A stretch of DNA of 64,000 nucleotides, from assembly GCA_051362555.1 (NCBI GenBank), contig CM120647.1, positions 15,228,651-15,292,650 of the forward strand. The letters are read 5' to 3'. Shown here in pieces: positions 10,162 through 62,095 of this stretch. Origin of the DNA: Lingula anatina. Lineage: Eukaryota > Animalia > Brachiopoda. Every line of letters starts with the position of its first letter. Position 1 is the first letter of the stretch. A program made the translations under genes and the position numbers. The notes beneath the pieces were generated by a model. The model worked only from the letters and a program-made list of their open reading frames with translations, was not told the origin of the DNA and made no database searches.

Positions 10162-10242
10162 TCTATACTTGCAGGTGAAACGTCGATGACTATCTTCTGT
10201 TAACACTAAACGATTTGTATGATCCAAGGTTAAAAGGCACTT

Positions 10243-24352: not shown

Positions 24353-24381
24353 TGACGTCATACTATAAATCTGCCATCTTG
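24353..24381 (+). promoter_or_regulatory. Probable PTP4A/PRL promoter: CRE, TATA and YY1 motifs
   Basis: Perfect TGACGTCA (24353-24360), TATAAA (24364-24369) and GCCATCTTG (24373-24381), followed by a strong donor G|GTAAGT at 24464/24465. Confidence 0.6.
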
Positions 24382-27300
24382 GCGTAGCTGAGGTCCCTCC
24401 CGAATATTTTTTGCGAGAAACTGGTTTCCTTTTCTAGTGGCGCTCAATGTGCGGAAATATTTTGGTAAGTGACTATCAATATTAATACAAAGCGTTCTAT
24501 TTTTATGTTTCCAGGCAAAATAGGCAACCTTTCATTCATGATAGTTGACGCGGTCATCCCGGTCATTTACCTTGTATGCGGTATGCAGCATGGGAATGAA
24601 AATTTTTATGACGGTATGAATGGTATAAATTTAGACGCTGAGAAGGCAGCACAGCTTGATGTGACTCCAGCCTCACTGCGATATTTTTGCTGACTTTAAA
24701 TTAAGTTTTTCATTGACACACAACGTATCAGTTAGTCCATCTGGTAGTGATTTCAGGTAAGTTAGCCGATGTTGAAATGTGACTGTGTGCACATTCTTGT
24801 GTTATTTGACACTTTGGCAATGTCATATATATGACAAGTGCATTTCAACAGTTCTGTCAATCTCATATTGTCAATACAGTGTAGTTTCGATAGGAGCTGA
24901 ATGCCACAGTTTTCTTACTAGTACGATATTTCTAAAATTTTGTGAATAATATTACTATATTTTGATGTTGTAACATTTTATATTATCATCTTTATTAATT
25001 TTTTATTTATTCAAACCATCTTTCTAAGTAATTTTTTCAATGACAGCACCCAGGAGATTAGGGTATATTATTTTTACTTGTTTCGTGTGACCTACCCACA
25101 ATGTTTTATTTTATTTATATATGTATATTTTTTTCAATAATTTCTGTTTCTTTGGTTTTCATCATAATCTGCTGCCTTTTTAGCGGTGTCAAATCATAAA
25201 TTTGACACTGTGATAAAAGGCAGCAAAAGCGATCACTTTCATTTTCATGTTGTAAAGTTAATATGTTTTCAGGCTATTTTAATGTGATCAAAGCCGCCAT
25301 ATTCCTGTGTTCGGCTACTTCTGTAGCATGGAAAGATAGGACAATGATTGGCATCATTTCCGATTCCTAGTTGGTCTGAAAGTAAATCAATAGAGCAGAT
25401 ATAGACAGGGCATAATAAATGATGATATTGCTCTAGAAATTGAAAGGTCAGACTACTTGATTAGGGCTGCTTTGTAAGCTGCTTGTGGTTGGAGAGCATG
25501 TCTGGTTGTCCTGTCCTTTTTATAATCATGTGACTGTCTGGCATTCTAGATTATCGTTAGGTAGACTTGGGTCCTTTTCTCAAGGAGCTGTAAAGCTTCC
25601 TGTAGTGCTCCAGATTAAGAAATTGACTGCTACTAGTGCCTAGTAGAACTTTACATGGCCTGGTTAATACATGGAAGAGTTGCCTCAATAGACCCTTGGC
25701 AAAAGACCCCCCCCCCCCCCCCCAAAAAAAAAAAAAAAAAAAGAAATCAATGAAAGACAATATTAACAAACAAATCAACTTTCTAAATTCTTCTTTAAAA
25801 GGCAGCCTAGTTGGTTAATTTTATTTGCAGACTTTGATTCTAAAGACACATTTTGCACTTGAGTCATTTTGTAATAAGAAAAATCCCCTGCTTGTATCTA
25901 AAGCTTGAAGTTAATCTGTCATTTTATCAATGAATATGAAAGGCCATTAGAGTGCCTTCAGCAGAATTGGCATCATTTCATTTTAAGGGATTGGGGGGGG
26001 GGGGTGGGTGAGAATCCCATCGTATAAATAGATGGTTTGACATCTTGATCAAAATTTTATTCTAGATATGTATCAGGTGTTATTGTTTGTACAATTTCGC
26101 TTAATTTCCTTTGTGTTGTGAAGTGACTGAACTGGACAAAAGCGGTTCAAACCAGAGACAACTGATTGAAAAACGGTGTTTATGTTATCTGGCGTTATTG
26201 TGTGAATGTCCTGAAATCTTTGGTTAAGCATAGTTAATGATTTACGTCAGTTATACTCTTGCTCATGACGTGATAGGGCATTCTCCCCGGGTTAAATAGG
26301 GTAACTCTAAGTGGTTTGCTTTTATGAACAAATGCTTTTTTATTAATGTGTTTTCTTGGAATAGTTTGATTTTAGTTTAAAGCTCTCTTCAGATATTGGA
26401 AAATGCCAATCATCAGCAGTATTCTGGGCAGTAAGGTTTTTTAAAATTGTTTTTCCTGGTATTCTGCTCTTTGTTTTTCAATATTGTGCTGAAAATTTAG
26501 AAAGTGATTTACTGAGGCTTCTTGGAAACAGCTTGATCTGCTTTGGACAGAAAATCATTCCTTATATTTGTGGAAAACAGACTGAGAAAGTGAAGTGTTG
26601 CATGAAGCCGACTTCTCAAGCTACATGTATAATCTGTGGTGTCCTTATTTTGAATCACAGTGATTAATAATTGGGTGATTGATTTTTTCATCTGTTTGCA
26701 AACTCGGTGAACTTGCTTCTTATCAACCAGTGGGCAGTCACAATTACGGTAATTATTTGAAATTTTCAAACACCCCACATTTTGTAATATTTTGCTTTTT
26801 TGAGATTTTCTCATTTTCGGACACATTAACTTTTTTGACAAATTAAGCACCCATCTTACATTCCTAAATATTCAAATTTAGATATATATTCAAGTTTTGT
26901 ATCAACAAAATATTTTAATTTGCTGAGTTATATTGTTCAAATTTTTCATGTAATTACAGGAGAGAATGGCTGGAGTGAAAGGAGAAATCAATTATGTTAT
27001 TTCTCTACCTACGGCTACCTATGCTAACTGGTGTACATGAAAACTATTTCTGTGGACTTTCCATCTTGTATTGATTTGTCGATATATATGAATATATATA
27101 GGTACTGGTATTGTTACTTTTTGATCAGATTGAAAAAGGCAGCACAAAATGAAGTTCGTCATTTGTGGTTTTGTTTCATTAACAAGTGTTGAACAGGTGG
27201 CACAGCTCCAAGAAAACTGCAGTGTTTCTGTGATTATACTCAAGTTACAGAATGTTTGGCAGTGCTTGTATTATAACAGCTAAAAATGTGTAGGAATTAT

Positions 27301-31671: not shown

Positions 31672-33325
31672 GGGTTAAGGTGGATATCAGTATCTGTTAA
31701 AAATATTAAATGATCTTAAATATTTGTAGTGAAAATCATGAAAACAAGTTCCATTTGGAAATGAACTTAAAAAGAAAAAAAAGGCTGATTACAATAGCTA
31801 GGTAATGTCCATTCTCCCACCTGAGTAATGGTTTATATATTTAAGTTTGATGTGCAAGCAAAAATGAAGGGGATAGAAATGCAGTCTTTTTTTTTTAATT
31901 AAAAAAAAATCTTAAGCATTGTGTTCCAGCAGTTTGCATATTTGGTATATGATAATTGAGAACTTGGGCTATTGATTATTAAGGTCAAAAGGTGACATTA
32001 ACACACTGACTTCAAGCCGTATGCTTGACCCAGCTACTGTTCATGAAATTCTGTCTGAGCTTTGAAGCTGAGTGGTGACCGGGAAGACAGGTTACCTGCA
32101 TGTCTGGGCTTGTTCTTCCCTACCTGCATGTTAATCACAGTATGACGGAACAGACAGTGCGTAAGATTGTGAGGTGCAGGTGTCGTAATCTTTAGTTGCT
32201 TTATCATATGATTTTTTTTAGGTGATTGTGATCTTTTGTCTGTCTCTTGTGTTTTTTTTTTCTTTATATCTGTAGCAAAACTTCTATAAGCTGTTAAAGC
32301 TGTGAGTCTAATCAGTGAAAAGTTGGGAGAAATAATTTTTTGGATTTTGCATTCATTTTCTGAAAGAGTGGTTTACTTCTAATTGTGTCTTCTGTCAAAT
32401 TTTGTCAGACGTACTTGATTTTTTTTTTTTTTTTTTTTTTTTTGCATTTGCATTTTGACCAGTGAAACTATTTGGGACACATTGGCACACATAGTCTGAA
32501 GATATTCAACATAAGGTCAGGTGTTGTCTAGACAAGCCATTGTACTGCAATTCATAGCAAGTAGAACTGAATAGCATAACCCAGTCTAGACTACTGGTAC
32601 ACGGCACTGGAGGTGCCTTCCTTGATCTGGAGGAGAAGGCATGTTGCTGTAACAATATAGTTCAATGTGATGTAGAGAAAAGGAATTGTGATAAGATTCC
32701 AGTCAACAAGGTTTACGAACACAGACCATCTTGGAACTCCTCTGTTGTTACTTTTGCACACAGTCCAAGAGAGTGTGGTCTTGGCACACCTTGGCCAGTG
32801 GCTCTGCACACAATGTCCAGTGAATAATAAGAAATATACATCAGATGAACTTTTTAATAAATGAGCTGTCACACTTGTCAGTCGCACCTTTGTTTTATGG
32901 ATGTGATTTGTGAGTTTCAAGGTTGATGAGCTGGTGCGTTTGGGTAAGAAAGAGAGAGGGAGATGAACATTTTTTTTTCTACATTTGTAAATGTGGGAGT
33001 CAGAGCACATTTTGGATCAGTTGATCTGGGGACTAACTAGCCTGGGGATCTAATAAAGTGCCACCCACTTTAAAGAGTGCCAAGTTTCCCCTGCTGGGAT
33101 GGCAGGCGTGGGAGGCAGAAATCCACTGTCAAGTCTGCACTGTATTTGATCCGCAGACTAGTTCCTCTGCAGATAAACTGGTTGTGAAAACAGATGTATT
33201 CCTCATGGTAAAGGTGTACTAGGTACCGTAGGATGTACATACAGGTTTGTTACTGATGTTTTCTTATTGATTGACAACAAAATAAGTCATCTTTACAGGG
33301 TTTTTGCGGTGGAGAGGGCATATGG

Positions 33326-33596: not shown

Positions 33597-35589
33597 ATAT
33601 TTGTCTGGAGATAATATATTTAAATTTCTTGGACATTTTCCCTCTAGAATGTCAACAGCATTAGAAAAGGGAAATGAAGGGAGACTAAGTTACTTATTAC
33701 ATTTCAGAACTTGTGCTCCAGGAAAGGTGGCAAAAAACAAGCACTAGTAGATAATTCAAGATTGCATGTCAAGATTTTCCAAACGAAGCTACTAAAAGCC
33801 TAATCTGCTTGTCATAGTTGGCTAAACAAAAGTTTAGCAGTCAAAGCTTGAAGGACATTTTTCCGTATTTTAAAGAGGAGGCATGCCTGTGGACTGTTTT
33901 TCAGGCAAAATTTGACTAAAACAAAGCTGATTCATCATCAGATCATAAGATCACTTGTGGTAAAGTATGGTCTCTTTTGAAGACTTAATTATTGGTTGAC
34001 TAATACATTGTGTGAGACATAGTGGACTTGGCTAGTCAGTTTTCTGAGTTGCAGTGTGTTATGAAAGTGCCTGCTGTTGTTTTGATGGTTGTTGATAAGT
34101 AGATTATTGTGCGTGTGGGATGAATCTGTGGATTGAGGAGTAGAAAGCTACGAGAATCACATGCAGGTACGGCTTTCCTTTCGTGAAAATAACTTAATAT
34201 GTAAGTTGTTTACATTGAGTGTATTTTGATGTTTAATGCTATATTTATGTAATTTTCCCAGAAGTGTAATATTCTGTCTTGATGTTCTCTGGCCTTGAAG
34301 TTGTTGATGTGTTTGATGTTTTGAAGAAATTATGAATGATGGGTCAGTGGGACCCACAGTCATAAGCACACACGCAAGCACAACATCTTGTGCTTGAATG
34401 TTTATAGAAAAATATAGATTGAGGATGAAATTGATTAATTCTATCTTAGTAAAGTATCTGTTGTGGTACTGGGGTACTAAGAGAACCTATACTTTTGATA
34501 GCACATTTCTTTTGATATGATAAGCATTGTCTCGTGTTTTGGAAAAATTCTCAGAAAATTTCAGTCATAATTTCCTTCTTTTTTATTTATTTATTTTTTT
34601 TTTTCTTATTTTTTACAACTGGGGTATAACTTTAGATGACATAACATGTCTTTGTCCCCCACTCCTTTTGAAAACTTCAGTGACATCAGCTTTATCAGTG
34701 GACCACAAGGAAGTTGTCTTTTTTGAACAGCATTCAGTATCCTCAACATGGGCCATAGAAAATCCATAGGCAATTGCATTGTGGATTTTTATTGCATCAA
34801 TACACAAATTCCAGTATCGTTGACTAAGCTAGTTCTGATTCAGAACATTGTGTGAGTAAAAATGCCAGCACGAGGAAGTTTTTGATAATTGTATCTTTTC
34901 TATTTCATAGGTAGCAATTTGTTTTTTTTTTCTTTTTTGGTTAATTTTTGTCAGAGGTATGATAGATCTTTTCTTTTCACTTTAGAAGTAAATTGATCAG
35001 AATGCATTTTGAAAAAAACCCTGTCCCATTTAAAAAGAAATACTCCACAACATTCGTTGGCCAAGTACACATACAGGGTTCTCCCCAGGCCTTTATAGCG
35101 TATCGGCCCCGATACGCTATTTTTTTTGCCGATACGCTTCTTTTTTTGCCGATACGCTTCTTTGAACTCCGATACCCTTTAAGAGTGTGTGTGTGACCAA
35201 TGCCTTTAATGCCTTTATTCCTGACAGTCGCGACGTAAACCGTAAAATAAAAACGACTGTGTGCGTACTTGGATCTCTTGTGTGCGCGATAAGTTGTTTA
35301 TTTTTATTCTGCCTGGCGCAGTAATACAAGTATAACATCTTATGTTGAGGGCGCGGGACCTGCGTACTGACAAGTTTCGAATATCAACATCCGCTTATTA
35401 GTTTCGTCATCAATGTAATTCTGTGAGATTTGTTTGCTTTATCTATATTTTTGGAGAAATATAATAAATAGTCAATCCTTCATGTTATTTTGACTGAAGA
35501 ATAGTAGCAGTCGTGATCATTTATAAATAAATGTATCCATGCGGCAAGAGAAAATGTCAGAAAAGATGCAACGCTATTTAATACATTAG

Positions 35590-38255
35590 CGCCTGTCCGG
35601 GACAGGTAAAAATTCAGCTCGGACAGGTGAAGTTGCAGGGTTGGCTGTCCGACAGACAGGTCATGGTTTAAGAGAAATTTGGAGCAAAAATCTTTTAAAA
35701 AATCATTTTTAATGCATACTAACGTCTTTTTGTCTCCTCCTACACGGTACTGAAAAGAATGACCTACTTTTGGCACAAAACACGTGCAGTCACAAAACGA
35801 AGTCTTAGCAAACTTACCGCCAAGTTATGAAAGTGAACACCCTCCAGAACTTCATCAGACAAAATTTATTCACATAACAGGCTCACTACTGAATATTTAT
35901 TTGGTTAAAAATCTACGTGCTCTAGAGAGAAAGACCGTTACAGAAACAACACAAGTACTATGCTGATTACAAAGCCAGATTGAACTAGATGAACTGGCTA
36001 TATCTAGTTCGTTGTCCAGGCAACATACTGCCTGTCAATCAAATACGTTGTATGCTATCTACTCACTACAGAACGTGAAATCTTTGGGACTGAAGATCTT
36101 GTTGAAATATTGTTTATTTGCCAAAATATAACCTGAAATTTTGTATGATGTTTTCTTTAATGACTTTATCATCACCTATAGTATTTACAGTTAAAAATTT
36201 AGTGCTGGAATATGATAAATTAACATTGCTGTCATATACCAGTGTGGTATTGATGTAAGGAAGAAATTAGTAATAACAAATATGAGAATTTAAAAAAAAG
36301 GGGAACTTTTTTATACTGATTTTATTTAACTCATATATTTAAGAAAATCAAACACAAGATAACCCCTAAAAAGTTAAATCGTTAACATAAATATAAGTAA
36401 AGTATTATAAGATGAATATTCTTTAATTTTTCATTGAACCAGGGCTCGACATAAGTGCCTGTCCGCCTGTCCGGGACAGGTAAAAATTCAGTTCGGACAG
36501 GTGAAGTTGCAGGGTTGGCTGTCCGACGGACAGGTCATGTTTTATGAGAAATGTGGAGCAAAATTTAAAAAAATCATTTTTATTTGTTGCATACGAACGT
36601 CTTTTTGCCTCTTCTTAGACGGCATTGAAAAGTGTGACCTACTTTTGGCACAAAACACATGCAGTCGCAAAACGAAGTCTGAGCAAACTTACCGCCAAAT
36701 TATGAAAGTGAACACCCTCCAGAAGTTCATCAGACAAAATTTATTCACATATCAGGTTCACTACTGAACATTTATTTAGTTAAAAATCCTACGTGCTCTA
36801 GTAATAAAGACCCTTCCAAAAACAGAAACTTTACACAAGTACTGTGCTGCCTGGTTACAAAGCCAGATTGGACTGGATGAACTGGCTATATATAGTTCGT
36901 TGTCAAGGCAACATACTGCCTGTCAATCACATACGTATGCTATCTACTCACTATAGAAAGTGAAATCTTTGGGACTGAAGATCTTGTTGAAATGTTGTTT
37001 ATTTGCCAAGATATAACCAGAAATTTTGTTTGATGTTTTCTTTAAGGACTCTAGCATCACCTCTGTTATTTACAGCTTAAAATTTAGTGCTGGAATATGA
37101 TAAATTAACATTGCTCTCATATAACAGTGTGATATTAATGTAAGGAAGAAATTAGTAATAACAAATATGAGAATTTAAATAAAAAGAAGGGGAACTTTTT
37201 GATACTGATTTTATTTAATTCATATATTTTTACAAAATCAAACACGTGATAACCCCGTAAGAAGTTAAATTGTTAACATAAATATAAGTAAAGTATTATA
37301 AAATGAATATTCTTTAATTTTCATTGAACTTTATTCAAATATTTTAAATATTGAATATTTTAATAAAATTAATTTAACAGTACCCCCTCCCCACCCCACT
37401 TTTTTTTTTTTTTTTTTTTTTTTAGCTCTGGTTAAACTTTATGTGAATCTGTTATCAAATTGCAGACTTACAATTAGTAAACCCTGTACCCCAATTCCTA
37501 GGAGAAGCCCTGATTGGAACTAAATAAATATTAGACTTATATGCAAGTTTAAAATCTTCGGGAATTCACAAGTATGAAAAAACAACTTTTTATGTGAACA
37601 TAAGTTCACGTTAAGGTGCATTTTTGGGGCTCATATGATTGAATGTTTTGGTAATAAATACATTTAATGTATGACACATATTGATTGACAAAGTTCAAAG
37701 GTATGAATAGAAAAAAAAATTATTGGTTTTGTGGACAGGTTGGATTGAAAATCGGACAGGTCAAATTTATGAGCACCTGTCCTTCGGACAGGTGCTCATA
37801 AAAGTTAGTGTCTAGCCCTGTGAACTTTTGAATATTTTAATAAAATTAATCTAACAGTACCCACCTGCCACTCAGGGTATTTATATTTTGCTTTGGTTAA
37901 ACTTCATGTGAATTTGTTATCAAATTGCAGATTTACAATTAGCAGACCCTGTACCCAAAATCCTAGGAGAAGCCCTGATTGAAACTTTATAATGTTAAAT
38001 CAGACTTATATGCAAGATTAAATCTTCAGGAGTTTACAAGTATGAAAAAACAACTTTTTATCTGAAAATAAATCCACTTTAAGGTGCATTTTCCGGCTCA
38101 TTTAATTTAATGTCTTGGCAATAAATGCATTAAATGTATGACTACACATATTTATTTACAAAGTTCAATGGTATGAATAGAAAAAATATTAGTTTTGTTG
38201 GACAGGTTGGATTGAAATTCGGACAGGTACTCATAAAAGTTAGTGTCTAGCCCTG
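35590..38255. mobile_element. Middle element: family B copy with left end missing, interrupted by a second family B copy
   Basis: 35590-36439 plus 37821-38255 align along their length to 36440-37820 and end in the same TGTCTAGCCCTG terminus. Confidence 0.85.
36440..37820. mobile_element. Inner element: complete ~1.38-kb non-autonomous DNA transposon (family B), 5-bp TSD
   Basis: TIR CAGGGCTCGACA / TGTCTAGCCCTG, TSD TGAAC on both sides, multiple subterminal GGACAGG/CCTGTCC motifs, no transposase ORF. Confidence 0.92.
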
Positions 38256-41200
38256 ATTTTCCCGCAAAATTTGGTCCTGCAAGTGGGCTATGTCGTAACG
38301 ATTTAATGACAGCTTCAGATTGCATGAGATTGCACCCTTTTTGCATGAAATAATGAAAGTTTTTCCTCCGGAGGGCACATCCCTGGACTCCCCCCCCCCC
38401 TTTGTGCCTCGCTTCGCGAGCTTCGGTACTCTCGCATAAAAAAAAATAAGGGCTATTTTCAAATCCTGGGGAGAACCCTGACATACACTTTTTATCCCTT
38501 TGCTGACAGCCATGATGTCATGATGATGACCTTTGACCTGCATCATTTTATTGTTTGTTTATTCCTAGCACCAGTACTTCACTTTGTAGCCTTAACTGTA
38601 GCAGGCAGGTATGTGTGTGCATATATTCATAGTGGCAGTCATTGTTTTGTAGGGCATGGGGGTTTGGCCCTATACTCTCTCAAGGTTTTTGACAATCCTC
38701 ATCTGAACTGACTGTCTGGATAGCATGTATTACCTAGGGTTTTTGATACTGTCACTTGAGACTTCAAGGTGAGCAAAACGGGAGAGTCTGGTTTCTGCAT
38801 ATAAAGATGCCAATCATTTAAAAAAAATTCCTGTACTTACCAGGTCAAACAGTTTGCATAGTCAGATGTTGGGGGGGGTTAAATCTGTTTTATTTATTTA
38901 TTTACCAAAAGATATGTTCTTATTTTTTAACCAGAAAAGGATATTTTATTCATATTTTTTTCATTTTCTTTCATAATTTGGTGTGTTATATTTTCCTTTG
39001 ATATTGAGATCCTAGCACTGTGTGGCAAAGTGCCCAGAGGAAAACTGTCTTGGATTCCGTATTATGGGTATTTTTTTGCTTCCTGTACCTGTGCAGTGCT
39101 ATGAGGCGGCTGTCTATTCATAGAACCCCCCAGAAAACCTATCTTAATCTGACTGATACTCCCAGCTTTTGTTATTGTTGTTATTTGTGGCGTCACTGCT
39201 GTCAGTTAGCATATTTGTGGGCTGCGGAGGGGTTGGACACCGCATTTGTTTTGGATTCATTTCAACCAGGAAGAAACTTCAAAGAAAGGATGTAACTTGG
39301 AGATAGGTGAGTTATTGTTGAAAAAAATACGGGCGGGGTGGGGGGAGTAATGAGCCGAGTGAATTAGATACATGTAGGCTACACTTCAGAAGAAGATTGC
39401 AGCTAGTTTGAAAGTGAATATCAGTTAAAAGGAATTCCCAAGATTGGCTGTGGTGTCTTGGGGAGAAAGGTATGTTATTACTGAGAGAATATCAGCCAAA
39501 AGCTGGCGTACACATACTTAGGTAAGCCAGGATTTGAAGCTAACTTTATTGGGTCTGGTCTGGGCTGGAGAATGTTTTTGGTGGATTTGTCTGGAGCATA
39601 ATGTGTATAGTTTTGTCTGGGGAGTTGAGATGTTTGTTGTTGGAAGTGACAGCCTTGCTTTCGTAAGTGCATCATTTGCATGGCACCAGTGGACTCAGGA
39701 CAGAGCTGGAGAGGTGTGTTATTGGAGGGGAGGGGGGCACATGGACAAAATTATTTACTGAGTGAAATCAGAAATAGAAAAAGAGGAGTTTTACTGGGGG
39801 AGTATGGGGTATTCCAAAAGGGTGGAAAGGAGAGCATGTCACCCACTGTGTTCTTCCCCCTCTCTCTGGATACACCATTGTTCAGTCTATTCCACTTTGA
39901 TAACCATATTGGTTTACTTTGATTGTTTTTGGTTTGGAGTAAACTGCTGTGTATATGATGGCAAAGTGATATGGATAAGCGGGTTAAGTGAGGTATTGCG
40001 GTCTATATGAACTGATTTTCTGGATAAATGTTGCATAAGGCTTCAGCGTGCATTCTAGGAATCGTTATGTTACTGTGTTATGGTGAAGATTGCTTATTTC
40101 AAGTATGGAATTGACACAATAGCCGTGTATGACTTAACGAAAATAAGGATGATATAAGATGAATCTCGGAATCAATTTACACACTGCGTACTTGATAAGA
40201 GAAGATGGTTCCAGATTAATCTTTGTCTGACAAGGTCAAGACTGTTCATAATTAGAGACAAAAATATATATGTAAGTAATTTAGTTGTTGCAGCACGGCT
40301 CTTGTATGCTTTCACCATTAGTATTTGGGATAATTTAGAAGGTGAACTTGTTATATGTGAGGCAAAATAAGCTTCATTTTGGACATAACTGAGCTGCAGG
40401 TGGGGATTGCAATTAGGGCCTTTTTTTTTTCCTGTGAATATCACTAATTATTATCGTTATAGTATGTTCTTAGTACTGTACTTGACATTCATTATAGTTA
40501 TGTCAGATCAGCTCTTAACATGTTGCAACCGGTCGTGGCCTCACAGATGAAGGCTGGACTTTAATCTGATAATAGATAACATGTTCTTTTTTTTTTTTTT
40601 TTTTTCTCTGTTATGGGTGTTTAATGTCAATGCAGTATTGCTACAACTGAAAGTTGTTCATAAAATCATAAACATTATTGGGGGTACTCATGGTTTTACC
40701 CTTTTAATAGCTCTCTTTCCACAGGAAAAAAAGTACTTGATTTGAAGGGAGGAAAATAATACATTATCCTCACAGTAGCAAATGAGAGAACATGTTCAAA
40801 TACTCTCAACGGCTTAAATAATACGGCATGGCTGCCCTTTCGCTAGCAGGTAATGGATTAGGTGGTAATAAGAGAGAGTGCTTACTACATCCAACAGTTC
40901 AGGCCAGCATTTGGCATTTGAGGTAAGACCAGGGTTCACCTGGCCTGCCTTCTGCCTTACTATACCCGAAATCCTGCTGGGTGAGTATATATTGGTGGAA
41001 AAGGCTGTATGAGAGTGTTAACTGGAATGTGTATTCTCTCTCCATCTTAGGCTCAATAATATTTTTGATGCAAAAAAGAATTATGCACACACTCATGCAC
41101 ATTCACACACACACGTACATGCACGACACATGTAGGCACACACATTTGCACTCACACACACTCACTCACACACACACACACACACACACGAGTCACCTGA

Positions 41201-44995: not shown

Positions 44996-45472
44996 GTCAA
45001 ACACACACATGCACACAAATGCATGCATTTCAAATAATGTCAAACACCTGTTCTTATACAGGTGAATTGTATTACTGAAAACTGATTTCCTAGTTTTAAT
45101 GCCAGTCACTAGTTCCAAGTATAGCCATACGAAACCCTCATACTTCCCAAAAGGCAACAAGTGCAAATTTTCTTTGTCAGTTAATACTGGAAATACCACA
45201 TACAATTGTATTTATAATTTTGAACCCGTATAATTCTAGGTATTGTTCAAAAGCTTGTTTAATTTCCAATTATATAACAGCTGAGCTGAGCTGTCAGCTT
45301 TACTAGCTAGTACTAGTACGTAATTGGGTAAAATGTGCAGGAAATGTGCTTTGGACCGTCAGTATCTCCAAAGTTTTCCCCCTGTCTGGTTCATTATAAT
45401 ATAAACAGTTTTGGTGGAATTTGGTGAGTAGTCATCACATTTATTTACCTGGGTTTATTTTCATGATTTCAG

Positions 45473-45550
45473 TTCTTTGGAGAGTTTGGGCACACCTTTA
45501 TGGAGTTTGTCACCAACAGTGGAGAATACTGCCAGGCCCAACACAAGTAG
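45473..45550 (+). CDS. Conserved-peptide upstream ORF of PTP4A/PRL (C-terminal exon portion)
   Basis: After the acceptor TTTCAG the frame reads FFGEFGHTFMEFVTNSGEYCQAQHK* (internal ATG at 45500). This resembles the vertebrate PTP4A1 uORF peptide as I recall it (..QFCGVLGHTFMEFLKGSGDYCQAQH..). Confidence 0.8.
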   Translation, partial: FFGEFGHTFMEFVTNSGEYCQAQHK

Positions 45551-46349
45551 ACTAGCAACCAGGTCGATCTCCTTGGTAACCAGAAATATCTCCACGGTAA
45601 CCAGATAACTTTTGCTCATTCAATCAAGGACTTTGAAGACGAAGGAGAACAGGATATCTGAACACCACGCGTTTGCCCTACTCTGAAAGGAGAAGTGGAA
45701 ACACGCCTTTTTAAGTGTGCTCTGCCAAGTTACGAAAATTCTCGGCCCTCGCTGCTCACTGCTTGCTGGAGCATCCAGCCTTAGCTTCCATTCTCCCAAC
45801 GCGTGGGATTACGAATGGGGTAAAAGAGGCGGTCGACTACCCCCAGTGCAAGCTCCGGTGCCAGTGCTGCTGTCTTGTGGCGACCTCTACTGGTATATTT
45901 ACGGCGTAAGGTTTACGAGGGGAGACTATACAGCCTTGTCTAGGATTGGGTGAATGTTTTAAAGAAATTTTTTTGACGACGAAGAGATTTCTTCACGGCC
46001 TTAACAAGGATTGTCTTTGTGGTGTGCAGAAAGTGGATTTGTTTGCTGAAGGCACAAAAAATTACATTTTTGTTGCCTTTAATTGAAAAGAATTGTGCTC
46101 AGCACTTAATAACAAACTTCCTTGCCACACTGAGGACTGATTCTGTCTGTTGAGTGGGAAAAAATCGGATTATTACTGTTATTGATTCCAACAGGAACAA
46201 GAGGCTAACATACACTAACAGTTAACTTGTTGGAGCTGCGAGGCGAATCGACACTCTGACGTTGTATTATTCTATTTTTAATTTATTTTTAGCCAATTTG
46301 TATCATACACCTGTTCTATTTGTCTTTTTGTTTGTTTGTTCACCGCGTT

Positions 46350-47295
46350 ATGACAGCTAATATGAAGGCCCGCAAGCCAGCCCCTGCTGTTATTGAGTAC
46401 AAAAACATGAGGTTTCTGATCACAGACCGCCCCACGGATGTGACCATGGAAAAGTATATCGAGGTGGGTGTGACTGATGAATTGAATCTGGTTAGATTTG
46501 TTTTATATGGATGAGAAATTAATGATTTATTAATTAATTTAATTTTTTGCTCCAATTAGGTTATTTTTGTGTTCATATTTGATCTGTTCTTATATTCAAC
46601 GAGTCCTTGTTTAAGATGAAAGATTTTGTTGAATTGTTAGATTACTTATAGATTCATGTTTCCATATTAATGACTTAATCTGATAATATATTAATTTTTT
46701 TTTTTTTAATTCTTTTATTGTAAAATCCAAAGATTTTGATCACAAGAAATAAATACTATTACTCTGAACCATTATTCAATTTTAAGTTAGTAGTTTCTGA
46801 CCTGTGAAATTTTTTCCTTCCTCCAGGAATTGAAGAAACATAATGCCAAGGATGTGGTTCGTGTCTGTGAGCCCACATACAAGACGGAGCAACTGTCGGA
46901 GGAGGGAATTAGAGTATTGGTGAGGCTTTTCTGACTGCTTTGTGAGACTGACATTAATTTTTTCCTTCTTTTCCTTGGCAGAAATCTCTGCTTTTGAAAA
47001 TGATACCCATTTACTAACGCCAAGAAAGATAGTCATGTAAAGTATGTCAGTTTGTTAGGTAATTGGACAGATCAGAAATGGGCTATCTTTAAATCAAATA
47101 CAATTTGGTTGGTAATATTTCCTTGCTCCTCTTCCAGGACTGGGCGTTTGATGACGGCAATCCCCCGCCACCCGAGGTGATGAATGACTGGTTCAACTTA
47201 CTGAAGACCCGCTTTAAGGAGGACCCCGACTCGTGTGTGGCCGTGCACTGTGTGGCTGGACTGGGGAGGTGAGATAACCTGGGCGCTCGCTCTTG

Positions 47296-47354
<59 letters not shown>

Positions 47355-47497
47355 GCAAGCTCTTACTCAACGTTCACAAAGCATTCATTTATTCTAACAC
47401 ATACCCACAGATAAACATACAAAAACTTCTCTCTCACTCTGGTACATTATCTCTTTCACATATACACATGCTCACTCACTCTCTCTCTCGTTATCTT

Positions 47498-47529
<32 letters not shown>

Positions 47530-47641
47530 GCACAAACATGCGAGCTCTTACCTCTATGTTCACAATGTGTTCACACACATACCCTCAGACAAACATAAGC
47601 TCTCTCTCACTGGCATATTATCTCTAGGTGCACATGCTCAA

Positions 47642-47703
<62 letters not shown>

Positions 47704-48311
47704 CTAGGTGTTTGACAGCACTTGATGAAGACTTGTTTCTCCTTTCAGAGCCCCTGTCCTGGTAGCACTAGCACTGATAGAACTGGGGATGAAGTATGAA
47801 GATGCTGTGGAGCTCATAAGACAGTAAGTTGCTTCTCAAGTCATAATAATAATATGATAATAATAATAATAATTTAATAGTAACAGTGATAATAATAGTC
47901 ACAAAAATGTTAATAATAATAATAATGTTTTTAAAGATAAAGACTTACCTTAAGTAAAACTTATTGCCAGTATGGACCTCTGAAAGGTTGATGCTTCCTT
48001 TAATTGTTTTATATGCTTAGTTGGCAGAGTTCTGATTGTTGCAGCCTATTTCATTTTGAAACTAGGTCCTTGGAGAGAAGTTTAAGAGTGAAAGGGAGTG
48101 CCACAGTACTGGAAGTCAGTTCAGGTTCCATTATATTTATTTATTAATCAGGCAATAAAAAAAAAATAGATAAAAGGAAACTGATTTTCACTTTTTCAGA
48201 AAACGCCGAGGTGCCATCAACACCAAACAGTTGGCCTTTCTGGAGAAGTACCGCCCCAAATCACGCCTGAAGAATCGTTCAAATGGACACAAGGCCTGCA
48301 GAATCATGTGA
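46350..48311 (+). CDS. PTP4A: Protein tyrosine phosphatase type IVA (PRL), 5 coding exons
   Basis: Exons 46350-46463, 46827-46919, 47138-47268, 47749-47823 and 48200-48311. Motifs [25 protein letters not shown], the active site [17 protein letters not shown] and C-terminal CAAX box CRIM*. Confidence 0.97.
47290..47702. repeat. (CT)n(CA)n microsatellite-rich duplicated intronic block
   Basis: Three (CT)n/(CA)n tracts separated by two similar spacers (GTTCACAA..CACATACCC.CAGA.AAACATA..CTCTCTCACT.GG..CATTATCTCT). Confidence 0.8.
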
Positions 48312-52595: not shown

Positions 52596-55500
52596 ATGTA
52601 GATTTGTTAATTGGATGGTTGGTTAATTGACGACTGCTTTAATTAATTGATTAATTAGTACAGTTCTTGTTCATGTGGCTAGGCGTGGAGACGGGAAGGA
52701 CTGCCTCTTTCTACCACCAGCAACGACGCCTGCAAGATGTACGACGCTGTCCTCACACAGGTACCGTATAACTAGGTCTTAAGCACTTTTTTAAATATAG
52801 ATAGAAGCCTAAGGACTATATATAATGCGGTTCACTAAGAAAATAAGAAAAAAATAAATGTTAGAAAAGTAAGAAAAAAATCGCAAATGTCAGGGAAAAT
52901 ACTGCTGTAAATGACCGGATTTTCACAAACCTGTTCCCATTTCCAGTATGTCGGTTGGTATGAAGACCCCTCCGTTGGTGGCATTCAGAAAGCAATAGAG
53001 AACATGGCAACAGCAGACCCTAATTTCGGTAAGTGTCCACTTAGCCACTCTTTACTTAAAAATAGATAAATTAATAAAAATTAGGATGTCTGAAAATAAA
53101 TTAATAAACATGAAAACAGGACAGCTGTCTACCAAACTCTTTTGACTTTAAGAACAGGAAAAGGGGTATATAGATAGTAATTATTCAACGGTTTTGGACA
53201 CCGTATACCTTGGTGGTGAAAGGAAAAAAATTTTAATTACCATTACTTTGAAATATAACTCTTGCATGCATTGTATGCTTTCACATTTCCTGCTATTCCA
53301 GTTATGGCACACGTGATGGCTAATGGGCTGACTCTGTTAGCCGGAAATAAGTCGATAGCACATGACCCGGTGATGCAGGCCGCCGTGGCCAAGATGGCGC
53401 AATTGGCGGCAAAGAATAACATTACGGATCGAGAGCGGAACCACGTGTCTGCCGTAAAACTATGGGCAGAGGGGTAAAGTCTGTTATGTCTTGTAGACAC
53501 TAGCGATATGGGATGGGGGGATGCAGGGGCATTTATGCAGAACAAAGAAAGGCAAGAAAAAAATTTGGGCTAGGACAATTTTATTGTAATATATAGGAAA
53601 CAGGGATAAAATATTGCCTGGTTTTGTCTTATCTTTTTGTTATGGGAGGGGGGGGGGGGGAGGGAGGCGTTCGTTGAAAGCGGGAAGAAGGAATATGTGG
53701 GGCATATGTTAGCACCCCCTCCCCTAGACAGACCATTATACGAACATACTATCAGGTGAAAGTATTTCCTCTTCTTCTTATTATTATTATTGTTATAAAT
53801 GTACTTACTGTTGCTTTCTTCGACCAAACTTGCAGATAAATCATACATACAGATAAACAATATAGTCATTGTACAATGACACTGACAGACATTAGTCCCA
53901 AAACCTAATGCCAAATAAATATCCATTACATCCGAATTACCAATTGTACAGAATTAAAATTTGGTGACTTTGCTTGTATTATTGCATCAGAATTGACAGT
54001 AGCTTATTTTGTGCATTATTATTTTCTGTTTATTGTCTGCACAGTTGACTGCTTTGCTGCCTTTGTTTATTTTTTGTACTCGTTGCATCTCGAAACATTT
54101 GAAATGAATCAAGTGTTTGAAAAAAAGCTTCCTTAAGTAATGTTTATTCACCCTGAGGTTCAGCGAAAATTTGAAACAAATCTCTACGCTGTAGCATACC
54201 TTTGCCATTTCAAGTTGAGTTGTGTTTCAAGTTATCTCTGAAGCTCGGGTTGTGTGTGTTGGATTTAGCCTTAAACTTGTCTCCTTCGATTAAAACCAAT
54301 ACTCTGACATATATTTTCATACTTTTGAATAAGTAGACTGAAAAATAAAACAAGATTGTTTTTCTCGAATTTTCTTTGCATGTGGTAGGACCCAACGTTA
54401 TAAACCTCTTGCTGTACGTTGTAATTCTAATATGGCTCCAGACATTCCTTAACATATCAACCAGCATTAGTCTGGGCTGACAAAGGTATCACCCAGTGGG
54501 TACTAAAAAAAGAAACAATAGCACCAAAGTCTACCCGTTTCTTTACGTTAGACGTAATATCACGTGTTTTCTTCTCAGGTTTCCTCGCACCGCACCTGTG
54601 TTCAAGGTGTAATACTTCGTATTTTCAATGGAAATACTGCTAATAGTCTTCAATCAAATATTATCCAGTTTCGCCTGCCTTGTTCAAGTCCGTTTGGTAG
54701 TGCCTGTCAGCTGGCCATGCTGGTCAAAGTTTGGTATTTTCATATACTGTTTACAATGGTTAGAATTTTTTTAACTCGCACATCAAATTGGGTTACGTAC
54801 ACTCAGATGTGTTTTTGGAGTGAATTATTTTTGTTGTGTTATTTCGTGTAATATCACTACTGTGTAATATGAGTACTGCTTTTGAGGTTATGCACTTTGC
54901 CTACTAATCGCAGTTACTACCGGGGTACCTTGAATATTCTACAGCTGCGCACACGTCCAAAAAAGAAGTCAGTTGCTTGTAGTCCCTGCTTGTTTTACTT
55001 TGAATTTAAACTTGGAGCTGGAGTCACAAAAGAACTACAAAAGTAAACCTTAAACTGGTCTTAAACTTTAAGACCAGTACTTCAGGCAAGATAAATTCGA
55101 AGAATTACTCTTTAATTAAACAGGCATTGTCCTAGTCTGGTCGGAGGTACGCCAATGACTTTCTTATTGTAAAAAAAAAGTTGCAACATTTCATGCCTTT
55201 GGAGCGCTGCTGATCTATCTTGGGTCAAAGCAGTCTAAATACACTGTATATATTTAAGACCAGTCTAGAATTGTATTTTTAAAAGACAAGCTTTTGGGCA
55301 AAAATATTTTTAAGACGAAATACTAAATACGTAGTCCTGTTTGAGTACCACTTAGGCGGTAACACATGTTGTTTAGATCAGCCAAAAAACGTCACGGAAG
55401 TATTGCTCCAATAACCTCAATCCGCTTATGTTCCTTTTATAGACCTCAACTAGGTAATTGCTCGCTTGCAACTGTGAACTTCTCTGACCTTGACCCAATT

Positions 55501-58500
55501 AAAGATTTTTTAAATGTTTTGTTTGTAAAGGGACACTCCGGGAGCGTGTAAGATTTGGGAAGACATCCTGTTGGATCATCCGACCGATTTACTGGCCCTG
55601 AAAATGGCCGCTGACACCTACTTTTTTAATGGAATGAAACCGGAAATGAGAGACAGCGTAAGCCGCGTGCTGCCGTCTTGGAAACCTTCCATACCACTCT
55701 ATGGGTAGCGTGCGCAATTAGCTGTTTTTTATTTGTTATATCATATATGTTGTTAATAAATTATTTTTTCTGATGAGCACCTGCTGAACGAGAAAATTTT
55801 CTTAATTACGATAATTAAAATTATTACCGTTTATTCACAATAAGAAGTCTGTTGTATAGTTTTTTTGTGCTTCGTGGAAGGACTCATTATATGTAGGTGG
55901 TTCACAAAATATGCAGTTCATTAAATTTGAACATGTTTCTACATTCAATGATTGACTTCATAAATACATTGTCAACTGAATTTTGTAGATATTTGACAGG
56001 TATGCATGCTTTTACGTTGGAAGAAACGTATTTATACGACGAGGCCGTGAAGACGGCTAACAAGGTAAATATGTGTATTTATATAATATAATATAATGTG
56101 GCTGAAAAGGGATAAACACTGTTAAGAAATCTGTTACAAAGTTGAATGGAAGAAGGTTGTTTTCAAGTTGTGGATATTCTTCAAATCCAAAGGTATTCGC
56201 TGGGATAATGCTATATAAAAAAGGTTCAGCAATTACTCTTCGACTTAATAAGCTTGATGTTGATACATGTACATGTATAATATGTGAAATCTGTTCTTTA
56301 CTTCATTTTATGTAATACATTATGATACGGTCGCTTTGCGGCCTTTGGGGTTCTTGTCTTCGTGGGTTTTTATGAAAGACACGTCGTTTACATTTATATT
56401 GAATTTATTTACAATTTTCTGTAAAGCAGTTGATCAAAAGGAAAGATGCCACTAATAAAGTCATGTCGGTAATGTAGGCTATATACAATAAGCAGTCTTA
56501 TTTGAAGGCATGGGATTCTAATAGCCATAAAAATACGTCATATAAATAATACAAATAGTAGTATTTGCTTGAGAAAGGGGTCATTAATTCAGCACATGCA
56601 GAATTCACGTTTGTCTAAAGAAAAACAATTAATGAAAATATTATCTTTCTTTCAGGCCTTGAACATCAATCCAAAAGACGGCTTTGCAACTCACGCGATA
56701 TCTCACGTGTACGAGATGAGAGGGGAGCACAACAAGGGCATCGATCTCATGTCTTCTAATGAACGCGACTGGATGGTGAGTTTATCTCATTTCTAGAAAT
56801 GCGCAGGAATGATGACTGAACCAAAGCTAGATATCATTTAAGTTATGTTTTGTTGACATTGACTATGTGATTTTTGACGTAGGCCTACAGCTGTATGCTT
56901 AAGCACCGAGTAAAAGTTAGTTTAAAGGGTGGTCTCTGATATCGGACATTGATTACATTTTAATTAGTAAAATGAGTAATAAGATATACGAATCCTTCAA
57001 CTTTTACCCTTTTTTAAATAATTTGAAAATTATTTAAAATTAAAAATATAGCGCCATTTATATGTAAAAATCAGACAGAACATTGCATTTAAAAGAACTG
57101 ATCAAGGTCTGAATAGACCTAATTTTTGAGGCTTGTTGTTAAGACATTCCTTCAATTTTTAATTACTTTTGTGGAACTTAATCTTTATATCTAAATGTCA
57201 GACTTGCAGAGCGATAGCTGGTCACTGCTACTGGCATTGGGCTGTGTACCACGTAGAAAAGGTATGATGTGCATTATATCTATGTATTTTACGTTTGCTA
57301 TTTGAAACTGGATCCAAGCTTCGTTACTTACCAAAACATTAGGCATTGGAAGAAAAAAAGCCAGAATATTTGTTTTATCCAAGTTTTACAATTCGCTGGC
57401 GGATACATTATTATATTATATTATATTATATTATATTATATTATATTATATTATATTATATTATTTACGTTCCAATTGAAAATTACTGCATGTGAAACAA
57501 ACATGCTTTTATTCCACCATTTGGCTTTCACCTTGAACGGTTTATGGTTATATAAGCCACACAAAACGGGTTAAAAACACTATACTGTTTGTAGATTATT
57601 GTAACAAAATGAATAAATAAATAGTTAAAGCAAACAATCAAAACGGAAGCAGATTTTTACAATCTTAAGGCCCTATCCTACCAAAGTGACTGCCGATCCA
57701 GTTTATTTCTTTCAGAGATGTAGGGCTCCGTGTCCACACTCATCAAAATGGCATAATTTCTCACGTTTTTATTGTAATTATTAAGTTTTACACAAGTTTT
57801 AGTATTACAAATCGGTTTTTAAGATCTGTGTAAACTGTGATGTATATCTTTGTTCATTGTTGTTACCTCTGTTCAGCTGGTATGCCAGATGATATTTTGG
57901 GATGAAAAATGTCTGTTTCATAAATGTAGGATGGTTTTAAATATAACATCAAATATATTTCTTTCAAAACAAGGGTGAATACGAGAAAGCTCTCGACATA
58001 TTTGACGCCGAGCTGGGAAAGCGTTGCAATGATGGCAACATGTTGGATCTTACCGATGCCTGCTCTATGCTGTACAGACTAGAGATGGAAGGTGTGTGAA
58101 AAAATAAATAATATTGAAATGGATTAACAATAAATAAATTAATAAACAGGGAAACACATAGGAAAAAGTATGAATTTATTTCTTTATGTAAAGAAAATCC
58201 CAAATATGTACCTTTGTAAGAATTGGCCTTCTCTTCCTCTCAGTCCACCGGACCTCTAGATGTTAAAAATACAAAATGCAAATAACCTGTTTGCATGTAT
58301 TGCAAGCATCGTCCAGTTGTCCGCCAAGCATTATCTTAGGCTTCGTTCACATGGAAAGTCTATTTTCTAAAGCGCGAGCCAGTTACTATAAGTTACTATA
58401 AGTAACTGGCTCTCGCTGCCAGTAATTACGCCGCGGGATATTCAGGGCACAGACCGTGATCATAAGATACCGCGAATAGAAAATAGATTTTTAGAAAAGC

Positions 58501-60039
58501 TTAACCTGTGTCGTTACTGATGCATTTGTTTTTGTCTAAAATTAGGAGTAAATGTTGGAGAAAGATGGAACGAGATTCTTGAGACGTGTCAGAGTCACGT
58601 GGGTGATCACGTGCAGTGCTTCACTGACGCCCACATTCTCATGGCGCTTCTTGGGGCTAAGGAGAAAGAAATAGCAAAACAAATGATGGATTCGATAAAG
58701 TCATTTGCAGTGTAAGTTTTGCTTGTTTTCCATCTTTTCAACCCCCGTTTTTATTTCCAGTAAGCACACAGGTCTATAAAAATTATCATTTTGTCCTCCT
58801 CTGTAAGAAAACGAAGTTTTTCTATTTAACACAAAGGATAGTCATCAAAACTTCAGTTACTAACACTAAAATGCTTTTTGTTTTGAAACAGTAAATTACT
58901 AATTTTAATCCTTGTTATTTTAATACACATTTTGTTTTGATACAGTAAATTCTTGATTTTAATCCTTGTTATTAAAAAATCCATTTAAAAGAGAATCACG
59001 TTATTTTATTGCCAGCGGTGGTTCAGTTTTGAAAGATTTGTATATTCTAGTAAGGGGCGTGGCCACAACCATGAGGTTGCAGCGGAAGTTGGCGTGCCTC
59101 TTTGTGAAGCCTTCGAAGCATACGATAATGGTGACTTTGGTAAAGCAGTTGACTTGCTGTATCCTATTCGTTATAAAGTCATAAAAATAGGCGGAAGTCA
59201 CGCACAGGTGATTGAGAAGATTCTTGAGTTAAACTTAATTTTGTTAATATTTGATATTATTTGTTTGGTCACGTTTAGAAAAAATAAATACAAAAAGTAA
59301 AGATGATAATGAAATAGTTCTGTTTTTGTTTCTGTCGAGTTTAATGACGCCGATTAGGACATTTCCGTTGATGTCATTAGGCAGACTAATTTGTCGTTTT
59401 ATGAAATTATTTTGGCGAATGCATAAAGTGAAATCATTCTCCTAGTATTTTGCTGTAATAAATTTCATTTTATGTCCATGTAGAGAGATGTCTTCAACCT
59501 GTTTCTCATCCAAGCCGCGCTGAAATCACAGGAGAAAAAACACCACAAGATAGCAAGGTAACAGTAAAACAGTAGGATCTTAGTGCATGTAGCCTTCATG
59601 CAAAATTATACATGTCCATAGTGAAGAAAATGTCCATTTATTATATAAAAATACTAATTAAAAATTTATTTGAAAAAAAAAAAAAAAAACGCTTACGAAA
59701 TCGAGACCAGTTAAGCCCACCAAGTCCACGGTATTTTACTCAGTACCTCAGAATCTCGCCACCTACATTTAATGTTTATTTTTCAAGTGAGAAAGCATAC
59801 GTCATTACCACAGGTGTTGAAATCAATAAAAGCTGCTCTGAAGTCCAGGTCAACTTATGCAATATTTTTTATATATTTGCAAGATATAAGTAAGCTTCAT
59901 CGAAATATTATCAGACGCTCGTGTTGATGGAGGTATGTTAATTTCCAGGATTTTATTGAATGAAAGGAAGGCACTGAAGGAGAACTCGCCCATGACTGAC
60001 CGACTGATCCAGAAAGCACTGGCACTGCATGCTGATTGA
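51343..60039 (+). CDS. TTC38: Tetratricopeptide repeat protein 38, ~13 coding exons
   Basis: Exons at about 51343-51369, 52683-52760, 52947-53028, 53302-53473, 55531-55704, 55990-56063, 56656-56775, 57202-57261, 57974-58091, 58546-58711, 59051-59207, 59483-59557 and 59949-60039. Peptides [74 protein letters not shown] and ERKALKENSPMTDRL. Confidence 0.94.
52472..52505. repeat. Perfect 15-bp-stem hairpin in TTC38 intron 1
   Basis: ATTTAAATACAGAAG-ATTC-CTTCTGTATTTAAAT. Confidence 0.85.
58338..58495. mobile_element. Small palindromic MITE-like remnant
   Basis: TCTATTTTCTA / TAGAAAATAGA inverted arms enclosing the palindrome GAGCCAGTTAC..GTAACTGGCTC. Confidence 0.45.
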
Positions 60040-60369
60040 AGACAGCAATTTTGGGGAAATAAAAATCAAAATAAAGGATCGTGTTTGATACGAAAAGGTA
60101 TAACATGGCTATAATGTAGCATAAAATATGATTTATGTATATCTGAATGAATGATTAATTTAGTTTTTTAAATAAATTACATATTCATAATTGACTTACT
60201 GGTACCGATAATAATATAGAACAAATTCAACTTTAGTCGTGGGGACGCTTTTTCTGTTAATATAACGATGCAGTGTGTTATAGACATAAATTTAAAGCGT
60301 GTTATATAATTTGTATGATACAGAGATGATTCATTGCTCGGTGTTGTCTCCCTTCGCTCACTGTCTGAT

Positions 60370-60790
60370 AGTCCTTGCGACAACTTTGAGGCCTTTAGAT
60401 GCTGAAGCTAATTAAAGGCGTCCTTTTAAGCCTAAAAGTTAAGTTTTGGAGATCACATCGCATAAATCTGAGGGGAACACGTTCAAAAGTAAGTCGCTAC
60501 TTGGGTACAGGTCCTTTTACTATAAGCAGAGAATAAAGCTGTCTGTATAATAGCCCTCTGTGATGACGACCTGAGACAAGCAATGCATACGAGAAAGCAT
60601 TTCCAGAGCACAGTTTAAGCACACCCGAGTCTCATCCAAGGCAATGGCGATCATGGACTCCCTTTTTTTTATATATATATATATATATTGGTAGTGTTGG
60701 AACCAATTAATTGTTTATTAATAATAATAATAATAATAACAAACTTTTCTCAAATTTTCTTGTTATCGTTTTCCTTATGTAGTCTTTATC
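60370..60790 (+). repeat. Copy 2 of the diverged direct repeat, downstream of TTC38
   Basis: Colinear similarity to 49960-50400: CCTTGC.ACAAC, CTGA.GCTAATT, AAAGGCGT, TTCAAAAGT, TACTTGG and CATTTCCAGAGCACA.TTTAAGCACACCCGAGTCTCA. Confidence 0.75.
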
Positions 60791-61934
60791 GTTTCTCGAT
60801 GCGCGTTGCCATAGTTAAATTATGACAAAGTGCTCACCTCGAGGTTTTATCGAGGCCTACAGTACACACCTGTTTTCCATCACAGAGTTTTGGAGATTAT
60901 TTGAAATAACAGATTGGAGCGTCATGATGTACATCTATACCATACAGCAATATATGACGTGAACTGTGTAATCTTTTCAACGTATAAACTGGGTTCATTT
61001 GTTAATAGGAACAGGAAATAACACGCTATTTAAGATTACATGTCCGTCTTTTGACCAGTGCTGGCAAGCGACTAAACGACCGAAGATGACAAAATATAGT
61101 CAGGCGATATTGGTTTATTAGTTTGCGTACGTTACTATTCTGTTCGTTTACAGTATTTTTCAGTTACACTATGCTTAGACAATATGTAAAGGCTATTAGG
61201 CTTATATGCCCCCCCCCCCTTCCCCATAGTTACTAGCACAATGTTTAAGTCAGTTAAGAGGGCGTGTTAACTCTACAGTCCAACGGATTGTTTTAGATTT
61301 TCTCCTCCTTCCACGAGTGTGTATAAGGTCACCATTTCACTGGCGTGTTTGCTGAAACGCGTGTACTGGCCTTGTTTTCACAGAAACCAACCATACCGAC
61401 TTGGGCCTTGCATATTATTTCATGAGCCAGCCTGTGTCGCTCTTTTCATCTGGGGAAGATGCTTCACTACACTCGTGTCTTTGAGGGAAGGGCTACAGCA
61501 CACGACAGGGAATGTGCTGAACAAAATGTGTATAAAACTATGTTTAGATTAATTGAACAGGATACCTCCTTTCGCTGCGTAAGTTAGTCTTAGACGTGCT
61601 GTGGGGAACTCACGAAACACTTATAACTTTTGACGGAGGAGTTATAGAGAACACACGTAAGATATATGACTGTTGGACGAATGCGTCCTTCTCTTATCCA
61701 GTGAGGTACATATCGTGTACTCCCTTGTCTTGTCTAACATGAAATGGCACTGAAGCACTGTCTTTATTACGCCATGGTTCTGTTCTTGATGCTAGGGATT
61801 CAGTCCAGGTGTCTTGGCAAAGTGTAGAAAAATACTGTGGTATCCATCCAGCAACTGCCAAACAGCCAACAACGCTCCATATGTATTTCATAAAATTCCT
61901 TCGCACTGGTGGAAATGAGTCTCTCCCCCCCCCC

Positions 61935-61965
<31 letters not shown>

Positions 61966-62095
61966 CCAACACACACACAATCTTCTCATTGAAAATTATC
62001 ACTGGGGCTATTATTAAAACACTCACTTATATGTTTGTTTTTACAATTAAAGCACATTAATAATATAGTCTTAATCAAATTAAAGACGTGTAATT

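Follow-up and report, generated by a model that had tools for sequence, protein, structure and literature searches.

Peptide, position and gene together show, at the level of sequence comparison, that an upstream open reading frame (uORF) in the 5' leader of the PRL/PTP4A gene of Lingula anatina is the brachiopod orthologue of the conserved-peptide uORF of vertebrate PTP4A1. The known regulatory uORF thereby gains a real, well-supported member from a further phylum, with sequencing reads for its spliced start and for alternative first exons. To our knowledge, peptide uORFs conserved in sequence from spiralians to mammals are rare. Throughout the text, the window is the whole stretch of 64,000 nucleotides that was analysed, and positions are counted from its first letter.

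The PRL gene and its spliced leader

The following features were placed in the window (evidence in brackets):

46350..48311, + strand: PRL/PTP4A coding region (spliced reads, translation, protein matches)
45473..46463, + strand: exon 2, holding the remaining 5' leader and PRL codons 1-38 (read coverage, splicing, translation)
45473..45550, + strand: body of the uORF, 25 codons and a stop (P0001), with an internal Met at 45500 (translation, alignments)
24364..24464, + strand: main first exon A, with a single AUG (loose read ends from both sides)
24447..24464, + strand: start of the uORF, AUG and five codons up to a phase-0 donor (junction reads, frame check)
34161..34166, + strand: end of first exon B, where a separate in-frame AUG plus one codon make a uORF of 27 codons (8 reads in run X4, 31 in X5)
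38725..38768, + strand: end of first exon C, with an out-of-frame AUG and a 59-codon overlapping frame (5 reads in X4, 15 in X5)
39290..39469, + strand: 3' portion of first exon D/E, with two donors, 39306 (D) and 39469 (E) (junction reads)
45815..45823, + strand: mini-uORF AUG-Gly-stop, with a pyrimidine at -3 (cross-locus comparison)
45954..45962, + strand: second two-codon uORF, AUG-Phe-stop (leader reading-frame listing)

The PRL coding region consists of five exons (46350-46463, 46827-46919, 47138-47268, 47749-47824 and 48201-48311) and its product has 174 amino acids. This product is 100% identical over 174 residues to the protein P0031, whose source name is Lingula anatina, and is matched by human PRL-2 chains (E 1e-71). 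The CVAGLGR loop of its DUSP-type domain and the CaaX box at its C-terminus are as expected of a member of the PRL/PTP4A family, and the alignment shows that the catalytic loop and the Arg-rich stretch are both retained.

RNA runs were chosen by their species label, and the data reported here come from five of nine runs (X1, X4, X5, X7 and X8), with 6-26% of the reads sampled. Read depth starts in the bin containing 45473, spans 45473-46463 and splices onto the PRL coding exons; upstream of 45473 there is a polypyrimidine tract followed by a CAG acceptor. The earlier note on this DNA had placed the exon in the PRL mRNA from the letters alone, and this is confirmed by the junction reads and by their orientation, since the leader reads map to the + strand in both stranded runs (X1 and X4). 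Over 45050-47270 the reads of X7 and X8 are mostly 95-99% like the window; their leader sequence shows many fixed differences, and the exon A junction is the same. We read their source as a distinct population, or perhaps a cryptic species, carrying the same label.

Translation of 45473-45550 gives the 25 residues and stop that had been proposed for these 78 nt. The stop codon (45548-45550) lies 799 nt upstream of the PRL AUG at 46350, in agreement with the earlier estimate of about 800, and the two frames differ. The uORF had been described as the first 78 nt of the pre-ATG exon: it does open exon 2, but the segment is only its 3' portion, and the start codon is found on another exon about 21 kb upstream. 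No in-frame AUG occurs in the intron right before the acceptor at 45473, where a stop stands two codons upstream. Loose read ends preceding 45473 match an exon ending at 24464 (82, 66, 36 and 20 reads in X1, X4, X7 and X8) and, reciprocally, loose ends beyond the donor at 24464 run into 45473 (75, 48, 50 and 29 reads in X1, X4, X5 and X7). The junction from exon A to 45473 is in frame, so that the spliced uORF has 31 codons, with its AUG six codons before the junction, and its frame begins at the first AUG of the PRL mRNA. The context of this AUG (24447) is weak, with U at -3 and at +4 and UCA preceding it. In the spliced mRNA the uORF thus has an in-frame AUG, at 24447 in exon A or at 34161 in exon B, sits in the 5' leader and terminates ahead of the main AUG. 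No Pfam family was found for P0001.

The 5' end of exon A was set at 24364 by a pile of read ends (7 molecules in X1). A perfect palindrome just before this mapped end and a motif just after it (24353-24384) are presumably of the CRE and YY1 type, respectively. Other 5' exon candidates picked by eye, at 24516-24756 and one ending at about 24166, were rejected, as they show no link to 45473 among the joints listed for four runs.

Four minor first exons, with donors at 34166, 38768, 39306 and 39469, all use the acceptor at 45473, and since no joints connect them among the joints listed, exons B to E act as alternative first exons. Donor D is supported by 14 reads in X5 and 5 in X7, donor E by 35 reads in X5. 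Exon D/E has no in-frame AUG crossing the junction to 45473, and for exons C, D and E the sole in-frame start is the internal Met at 45500. These three supply 64 of the 145 listed junction reads in X5, while exon A is alone among the junctions listed for X1. The D/E exon also carries a start-stop (AUG then UAA) at 39290-39295.

Intron 1 of PRL contains, on the - strand at 29336-31696, an open frame of 787 codons that by eye looks like a LINE-type reverse transcriptase and, around 35570-38260, direct repeats several hundred bases long that have diverged from one another and are matched by reads from either strand; they probably belong to a family of transposons. The neighbouring genes (600-21200 and 52700-63300), judged by eye on six-frame translations, we take to be those for an axonemal dynein light intermediate chain, EMC2, ERGIC3, an intronless histone H1 (9598-10242, - strand), a TTC38-like protein and a protein with LDL-receptor repeats.

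Orthology with the vertebrate PTP4A1 uORF

The supplement of Crowe 2006 (PMC1402274) gives a PTP4A1 uORF of 44 codons for human (NM_003463_1) and mouse (NM_011200_2). The exon-2 peptide is identical by eye to the human row at 17 of 25 residues, and a scripted comparison with a vertebrate-type locus (L013), whose peptide by eye corresponds to the last part of the human row, found 17 of 24 residues and 56 of 72 nucleotides identical. When the 31-residue L013 peptide was compared with the window in six frames, the uORF scored 104 and the next best place 36, against a mean of 38 and a maximum of 49 for 100 shuffles of the same peptide. The residues that the earlier note had given for human PTP4A1 agree with the NM_003463 row, and the homology that it had proposed on their basis holds.

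Besides the shared residues, the window uORF and those of human and mouse PTP4A1 belong to the same gene, occupy the same place in the leader and are interrupted by an intron at nearly the same position. The UCA-AUG start of the window lies at a position matching Met8 of the human uORF, and a mini-uORF follows the uORF in the vertebrate-type loci L001, L004 and L013 as well. The window uORF differs in that it has 31 codons against 44 in human (37 counted from Met8), continues for a single residue beyond the His where the human one continues for six, and lacks the Gln that precedes the first Phe in vertebrate PTP4A1. Unlike PTP4A1, the window PRL gene, known here from sequence and RNA reads, has five 5' exon ends, three of them without an in-frame AUG.

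Distribution, anatomy and selection across animals

An exact motif scan of metagenome contigs, in which 8 residues were fixed, found 20 loci; such a scan misses diverged copies and has no denominator. All 20 carry flanking residues outside those required by the motif, and in 15 of 20 PRL coding sequence lies downstream on the same strand. Among the remaining loci, the contigs of L003, L007, L014 and L018 hold just 365-1264 nt downstream, and L004, without a PRL match in 875 nt, shares only 318 nt with L001. The PRL of L005 is 98.8% identical to that of the annelid Dimorphilus and that of L011 97.8% identical to that of the hemichordate Glandiceps; L016 clusters with land gastropods, the closest matches of L017 are bivalve ones (84%), and the N-terminus typical of vertebrate PRL-1 is seen in L001 and L013. 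L006, L009, L010 and L019, whose best named matches are nemertean, annelid and mollusc (70-78%), were left unplaced since the tree forks are unsupported, and the exon-only PRL pieces of L002, L008, L012, L015 and L020 are too short for a firm placement.

As members occur in both Spiralia and Deuterostomia, the element can be dated to their common ancestor, and an origin before the protostome-deuterostome split, as the earlier note had suggested, is supported by loci of brachiopod, annelid, mollusc, hemichordate and vertebrate type. The same note had called the regulatory loop pan-bilaterian, which is more than the data support: arthropods, nematodes, echinoderms, cnidarians and sponges are not represented among the placed loci of the 20 from the motif scan, and no ecdysozoan or non-bilaterian member was identified. 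Absence of an exact motif from these groups is not evidence of loss, but pan-bilaterian occurrence is unproven.

The position of the intron is shared as well. A pyrimidine-rich tract and an AG stand directly before the first Phe in 13 of the 20 loci, as in the window. In the vertebrate-type loci L001, L004 and L013 the first Phe is preceded by CAG-CAG, the second triplet of which is CAA in the human row, implying that the vertebrate acceptor is the upstream CAG, 3 nt further upstream; we infer that the extra vertebrate Gln is an exonised acceptor triplet. The UCA-AUG start lies six codons before Phe in the window and in L009, L010 and L011, five codons in L019 and, in the human and mouse rows of PMC1402274, seven codons (Met8), the step from six to seven being accounted for by the extra Gln. 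The start differs in four of eight spliced-type loci: it is elsewhere in L006 and L016 (in a strong context in L006), and no in-frame AUG precedes the conserved part within the contigs of L005 and L017. The annelid L005 has a spliced PRL coding region and, before the peptide, intron-like sequence without an in-frame AUG; a retained intron and an intronic start, leaving only the internal Met, are candidate readings.

Behind the uORF, within 400 nt, AUG-Gly-stop occurs in 15 of 21 sequences and is absent from 6, against 0.18 expected from dinucleotide-type shuffles, and its -3 base is a pyrimidine in all 14 distinct cases. Two mollusc-like loci, L008 and L017, share a 9-codon uORF about 50 nt before the mini-uORF, possibly a third conserved uORF limited to one lineage.

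To evaluate selection we used the 19 distinct segments of 72 nt among the 21, keeping the 16 codons outside the search motif as a held-out set; the loci were picked by motif and are related, so the counts are not independent tests, and pN/pS is uncorrected, with pS near saturation. At the held-out codons the differences are 0.19, 0.18 and 0.52 at first, second and third positions. Uncorrected pN/pS is 0.23 when these codons are read in frame, against 1.83 and 1.59 for the two shifted frames, which shows selection on the amino acids; over all 24 codons of the 19 sequences it is 0.18, again uncorrected. Both values lie below the Ka/Ks of 0.5 that the ESUCA rule takes as its limit. Stop codons occur in 0, 6 and 10 of the 19 sequences in the three frames, the uORF frame being first. 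Invariant positions number 15 of 24, 8 of them forced by the motif and 7 not; the latter, invariant in 19 of 19 among the held-out residues, are Phe1, Gly3, Gly6, Thr8, Ser16, Gln23 and His24. Nucleotide likeness between the window leader and the other loci is limited to the uORF codons. Of the variants listed from the reads (40 of 69), a single, synonymous one (45529) lies within the 78 nt and 31 lie in the following 799 nt, which supports such selection weakly.

A full-text literature search, whose coverage excluded the ESUCA range table and the Hardy 2019 alignments, found no paper reporting a PRL uORF in an invertebrate. The statement of the earlier note that the peptide is described only in vertebrates fits the literature found, and holds within that coverage. 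uPEPperoni (PMC3914846) traced the PTP4A1 uORF from human to fish; no invertebrate copy is mentioned in the accessible parts of PMC10083557, PMC8728433, PMC11347596, PMC13275300, PMC8435553, PMC13670568 and PMC2276209, and the motif is absent from the supplement files searched for PMC4568590 and PMC10083557. ESUCA (PMC7530721) searched all animal transcripts with a loose threshold and names PTP4A1 first in a list that ends with the narrowest case, and its bioRxiv main text gives no further taxonomic range for this uORF; whether ESUCA may already show an invertebrate range is close to a toss-up.

A proposed brake on PRL translation and its known counterparts

In human cells reporter output goes up when the PTP4A1 uORF is frameshifted, indicating sequence-dependent repression (Takahashi 2020, PMC7530721), and according to a review (PMC11855589) scrambling the peptide abolishes the Mg2+ response, with stalling likely. 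The Mg2+-responsive uORF of Hardy 2019 is equated here with the PTP4A1 peptide uORF because PMC7530721 cites it so. From these mammalian findings and the constraint on its residues, the brachiopod uORF probably stalls ribosomes and holds down PRL translation in cis. Scanning ribosomes would initiate only partly at the weak AUG at 24447, and those that do would make the peptide and, with it in the exit tunnel, pause close to the invariant Gln-His. The tail beyond the His varies from 1 to 14 residues and is never 0, which sets it apart from uORFs that stall at termination. Because every one of the 19 distinct sequences has one or more sense codons behind the His, elongation would be the probable stage of the pause. 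The paused ribosome would block scanning, and queued subunits might raise initiation at the weak AUG, by analogy with AZIN1. Ribosomes getting past would meet the AUG-Gly-stop mini-uORF, which is so short that re-initiation could take place at PRL, 526 nt downstream, and would supply a second regulatory input. First exons C to E, being without an in-frame AUG for the full-length form, would let promoter choice weaken or bypass the brake.

If the brachiopod behaves as mammals do, a shortage of Mg2+ or of energy would ease the brake, PRL would rise and Mg2+ would be restored through CNNM. For an Mg2+ input to the brachiopod brake we consider the chances evenly balanced. The earlier note had spoken of a Mg2+-sensing peptide: the mammalian Mg2+ response does depend on the peptide, but the wording is too strong, as the response also depends on AMPK/mTORC2 (PMC11855589). 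We suggest, tentatively and with the balance somewhat against it, that the protostome-deuterostome ancestor already ran the complete two-uORF cassette of PRL with Mg2+/energy feedback on CNNM, and that the brachiopod tunes it by promoter choice. If so, the cassette would consist of a weak-start stalling peptide and the AUG-Gly-stop mini-uORF, with first exons giving the full peptide, a shorter start or none, and the mini-uORF and the conserved weak start would be working parts that go unmentioned in the mammalian papers compared.

For the question of how the PRL uORF couples translation to Mg2+, the invertebrate set offers a natural mutagenesis panel: tail and N-terminus are free to vary and none of the sequences stops directly after its last His, which points to an elongation pause near Gln-His. 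In the human leader it highlights the weak second AUG and the two-codon mini-uORF, and the constrained residues are relevant to human PRL-1 and PRL-2, which are oncogenic phosphatases.

The alternative that survives best overlaps with this explanation except for the input. The brachiopod brake might respond to eIF2 phosphorylation, to the energy state or to start-codon stringency, the Mg2+ link being a vertebrate or an indirect one; we regard this as unlikely, though well short of negligible. A marine animal in Mg2+-rich seawater may face other constraints, and two uORFs of weak context are conserved. The human PTP4A1 leader makes translation resistant to eIF2 phosphorylation (PMC4383229), and the AMPK/mTORC2 requirement of the mammalian Mg2+ effect (PMC11855589) could be read in the same way; the PRL-CNNM interaction, however, is conserved across homologues according to the same review, and the window PRL keeps the catalytic loop and the Arg-rich stretch.

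The strong amino-acid constraint and the variable tail length could also be explained if the uORF were kept mainly for a free microprotein acting in trans from a bicistronic mRNA, as with MIEF1 and SLC35A4, repression of PRL being a side effect. A PTP4A2 uORF is annotated by GENCODE as coding for protein, a decision based on its evolution and accompanied by HLA-I peptide evidence (PMC13275300). A weak start retained from brachiopod to human is nonetheless poor for high protein output, the N-terminal part is swapped between first exons, and cis repression in human cells is sequence-dependent (PMC7530721), so that we give this explanation a small chance.

Conservation of the 78 nt as an RNA element (a structure, a splicing enhancer or a protein-binding site), with an incidental open frame, is very improbable: the segment does open an exon, a place where sequence may be constrained by splicing signals, and is identical to L013 at 56 of 72 nt, but the differences concentrate at third codon positions and no folding signal was detected with mononucleotide shuffles (window z +0.9; mean 0.08 over the 20 loci). 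It can be practically dismissed that the 78 nt are a coding exon of some longer form of PRL, resemble the vertebrate peptide by chance or come from contaminating vertebrate DNA. Nothing was found in favour of these readings; the frame ends 799 nt ahead of the PRL AUG, out of frame with it and within one exon covered without a joint, the score of 104 compares with at most 49 for shuffles, and the PRL is identical to the Lingula protein, with RNA under the same species label splicing through the stretch.

The brake proposed here, in which the peptide would stall ribosomes in cis, has functional parallels in other leaders. The uCC of AZIN1 and the MAGDIS peptide of AMD1 are conserved, polyamine-responsive nascent peptides that pause ribosomes in response to a cation, and in AZIN1 a weak start is used more often by queued ribosomes. 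Ligand and genes are different from those of PRL, no sequence relation is claimed, and queuing in PRL would be an extension from that case. Leaders of the ATF4 type also have two uORFs, in the reverse order: in PRL the long uORF stands ahead of the very short one, and the comparison is one of function. In leaders of the ATF4 type, as in that of TRPM7, whose uORFs are Mg2+-sensitive (PMC11855589), leaky scanning and re-initiation at two uORFs determine how much of the main frame is translated, as would be the case for PRL. The closest counterpart by gene is the leader of the paralogous PTP4A2 (PRL-2), compared by description only, which carries a conserved Mg2+-responsive uORF and is the basis of the Mg2+ reporter of PMC10083557.
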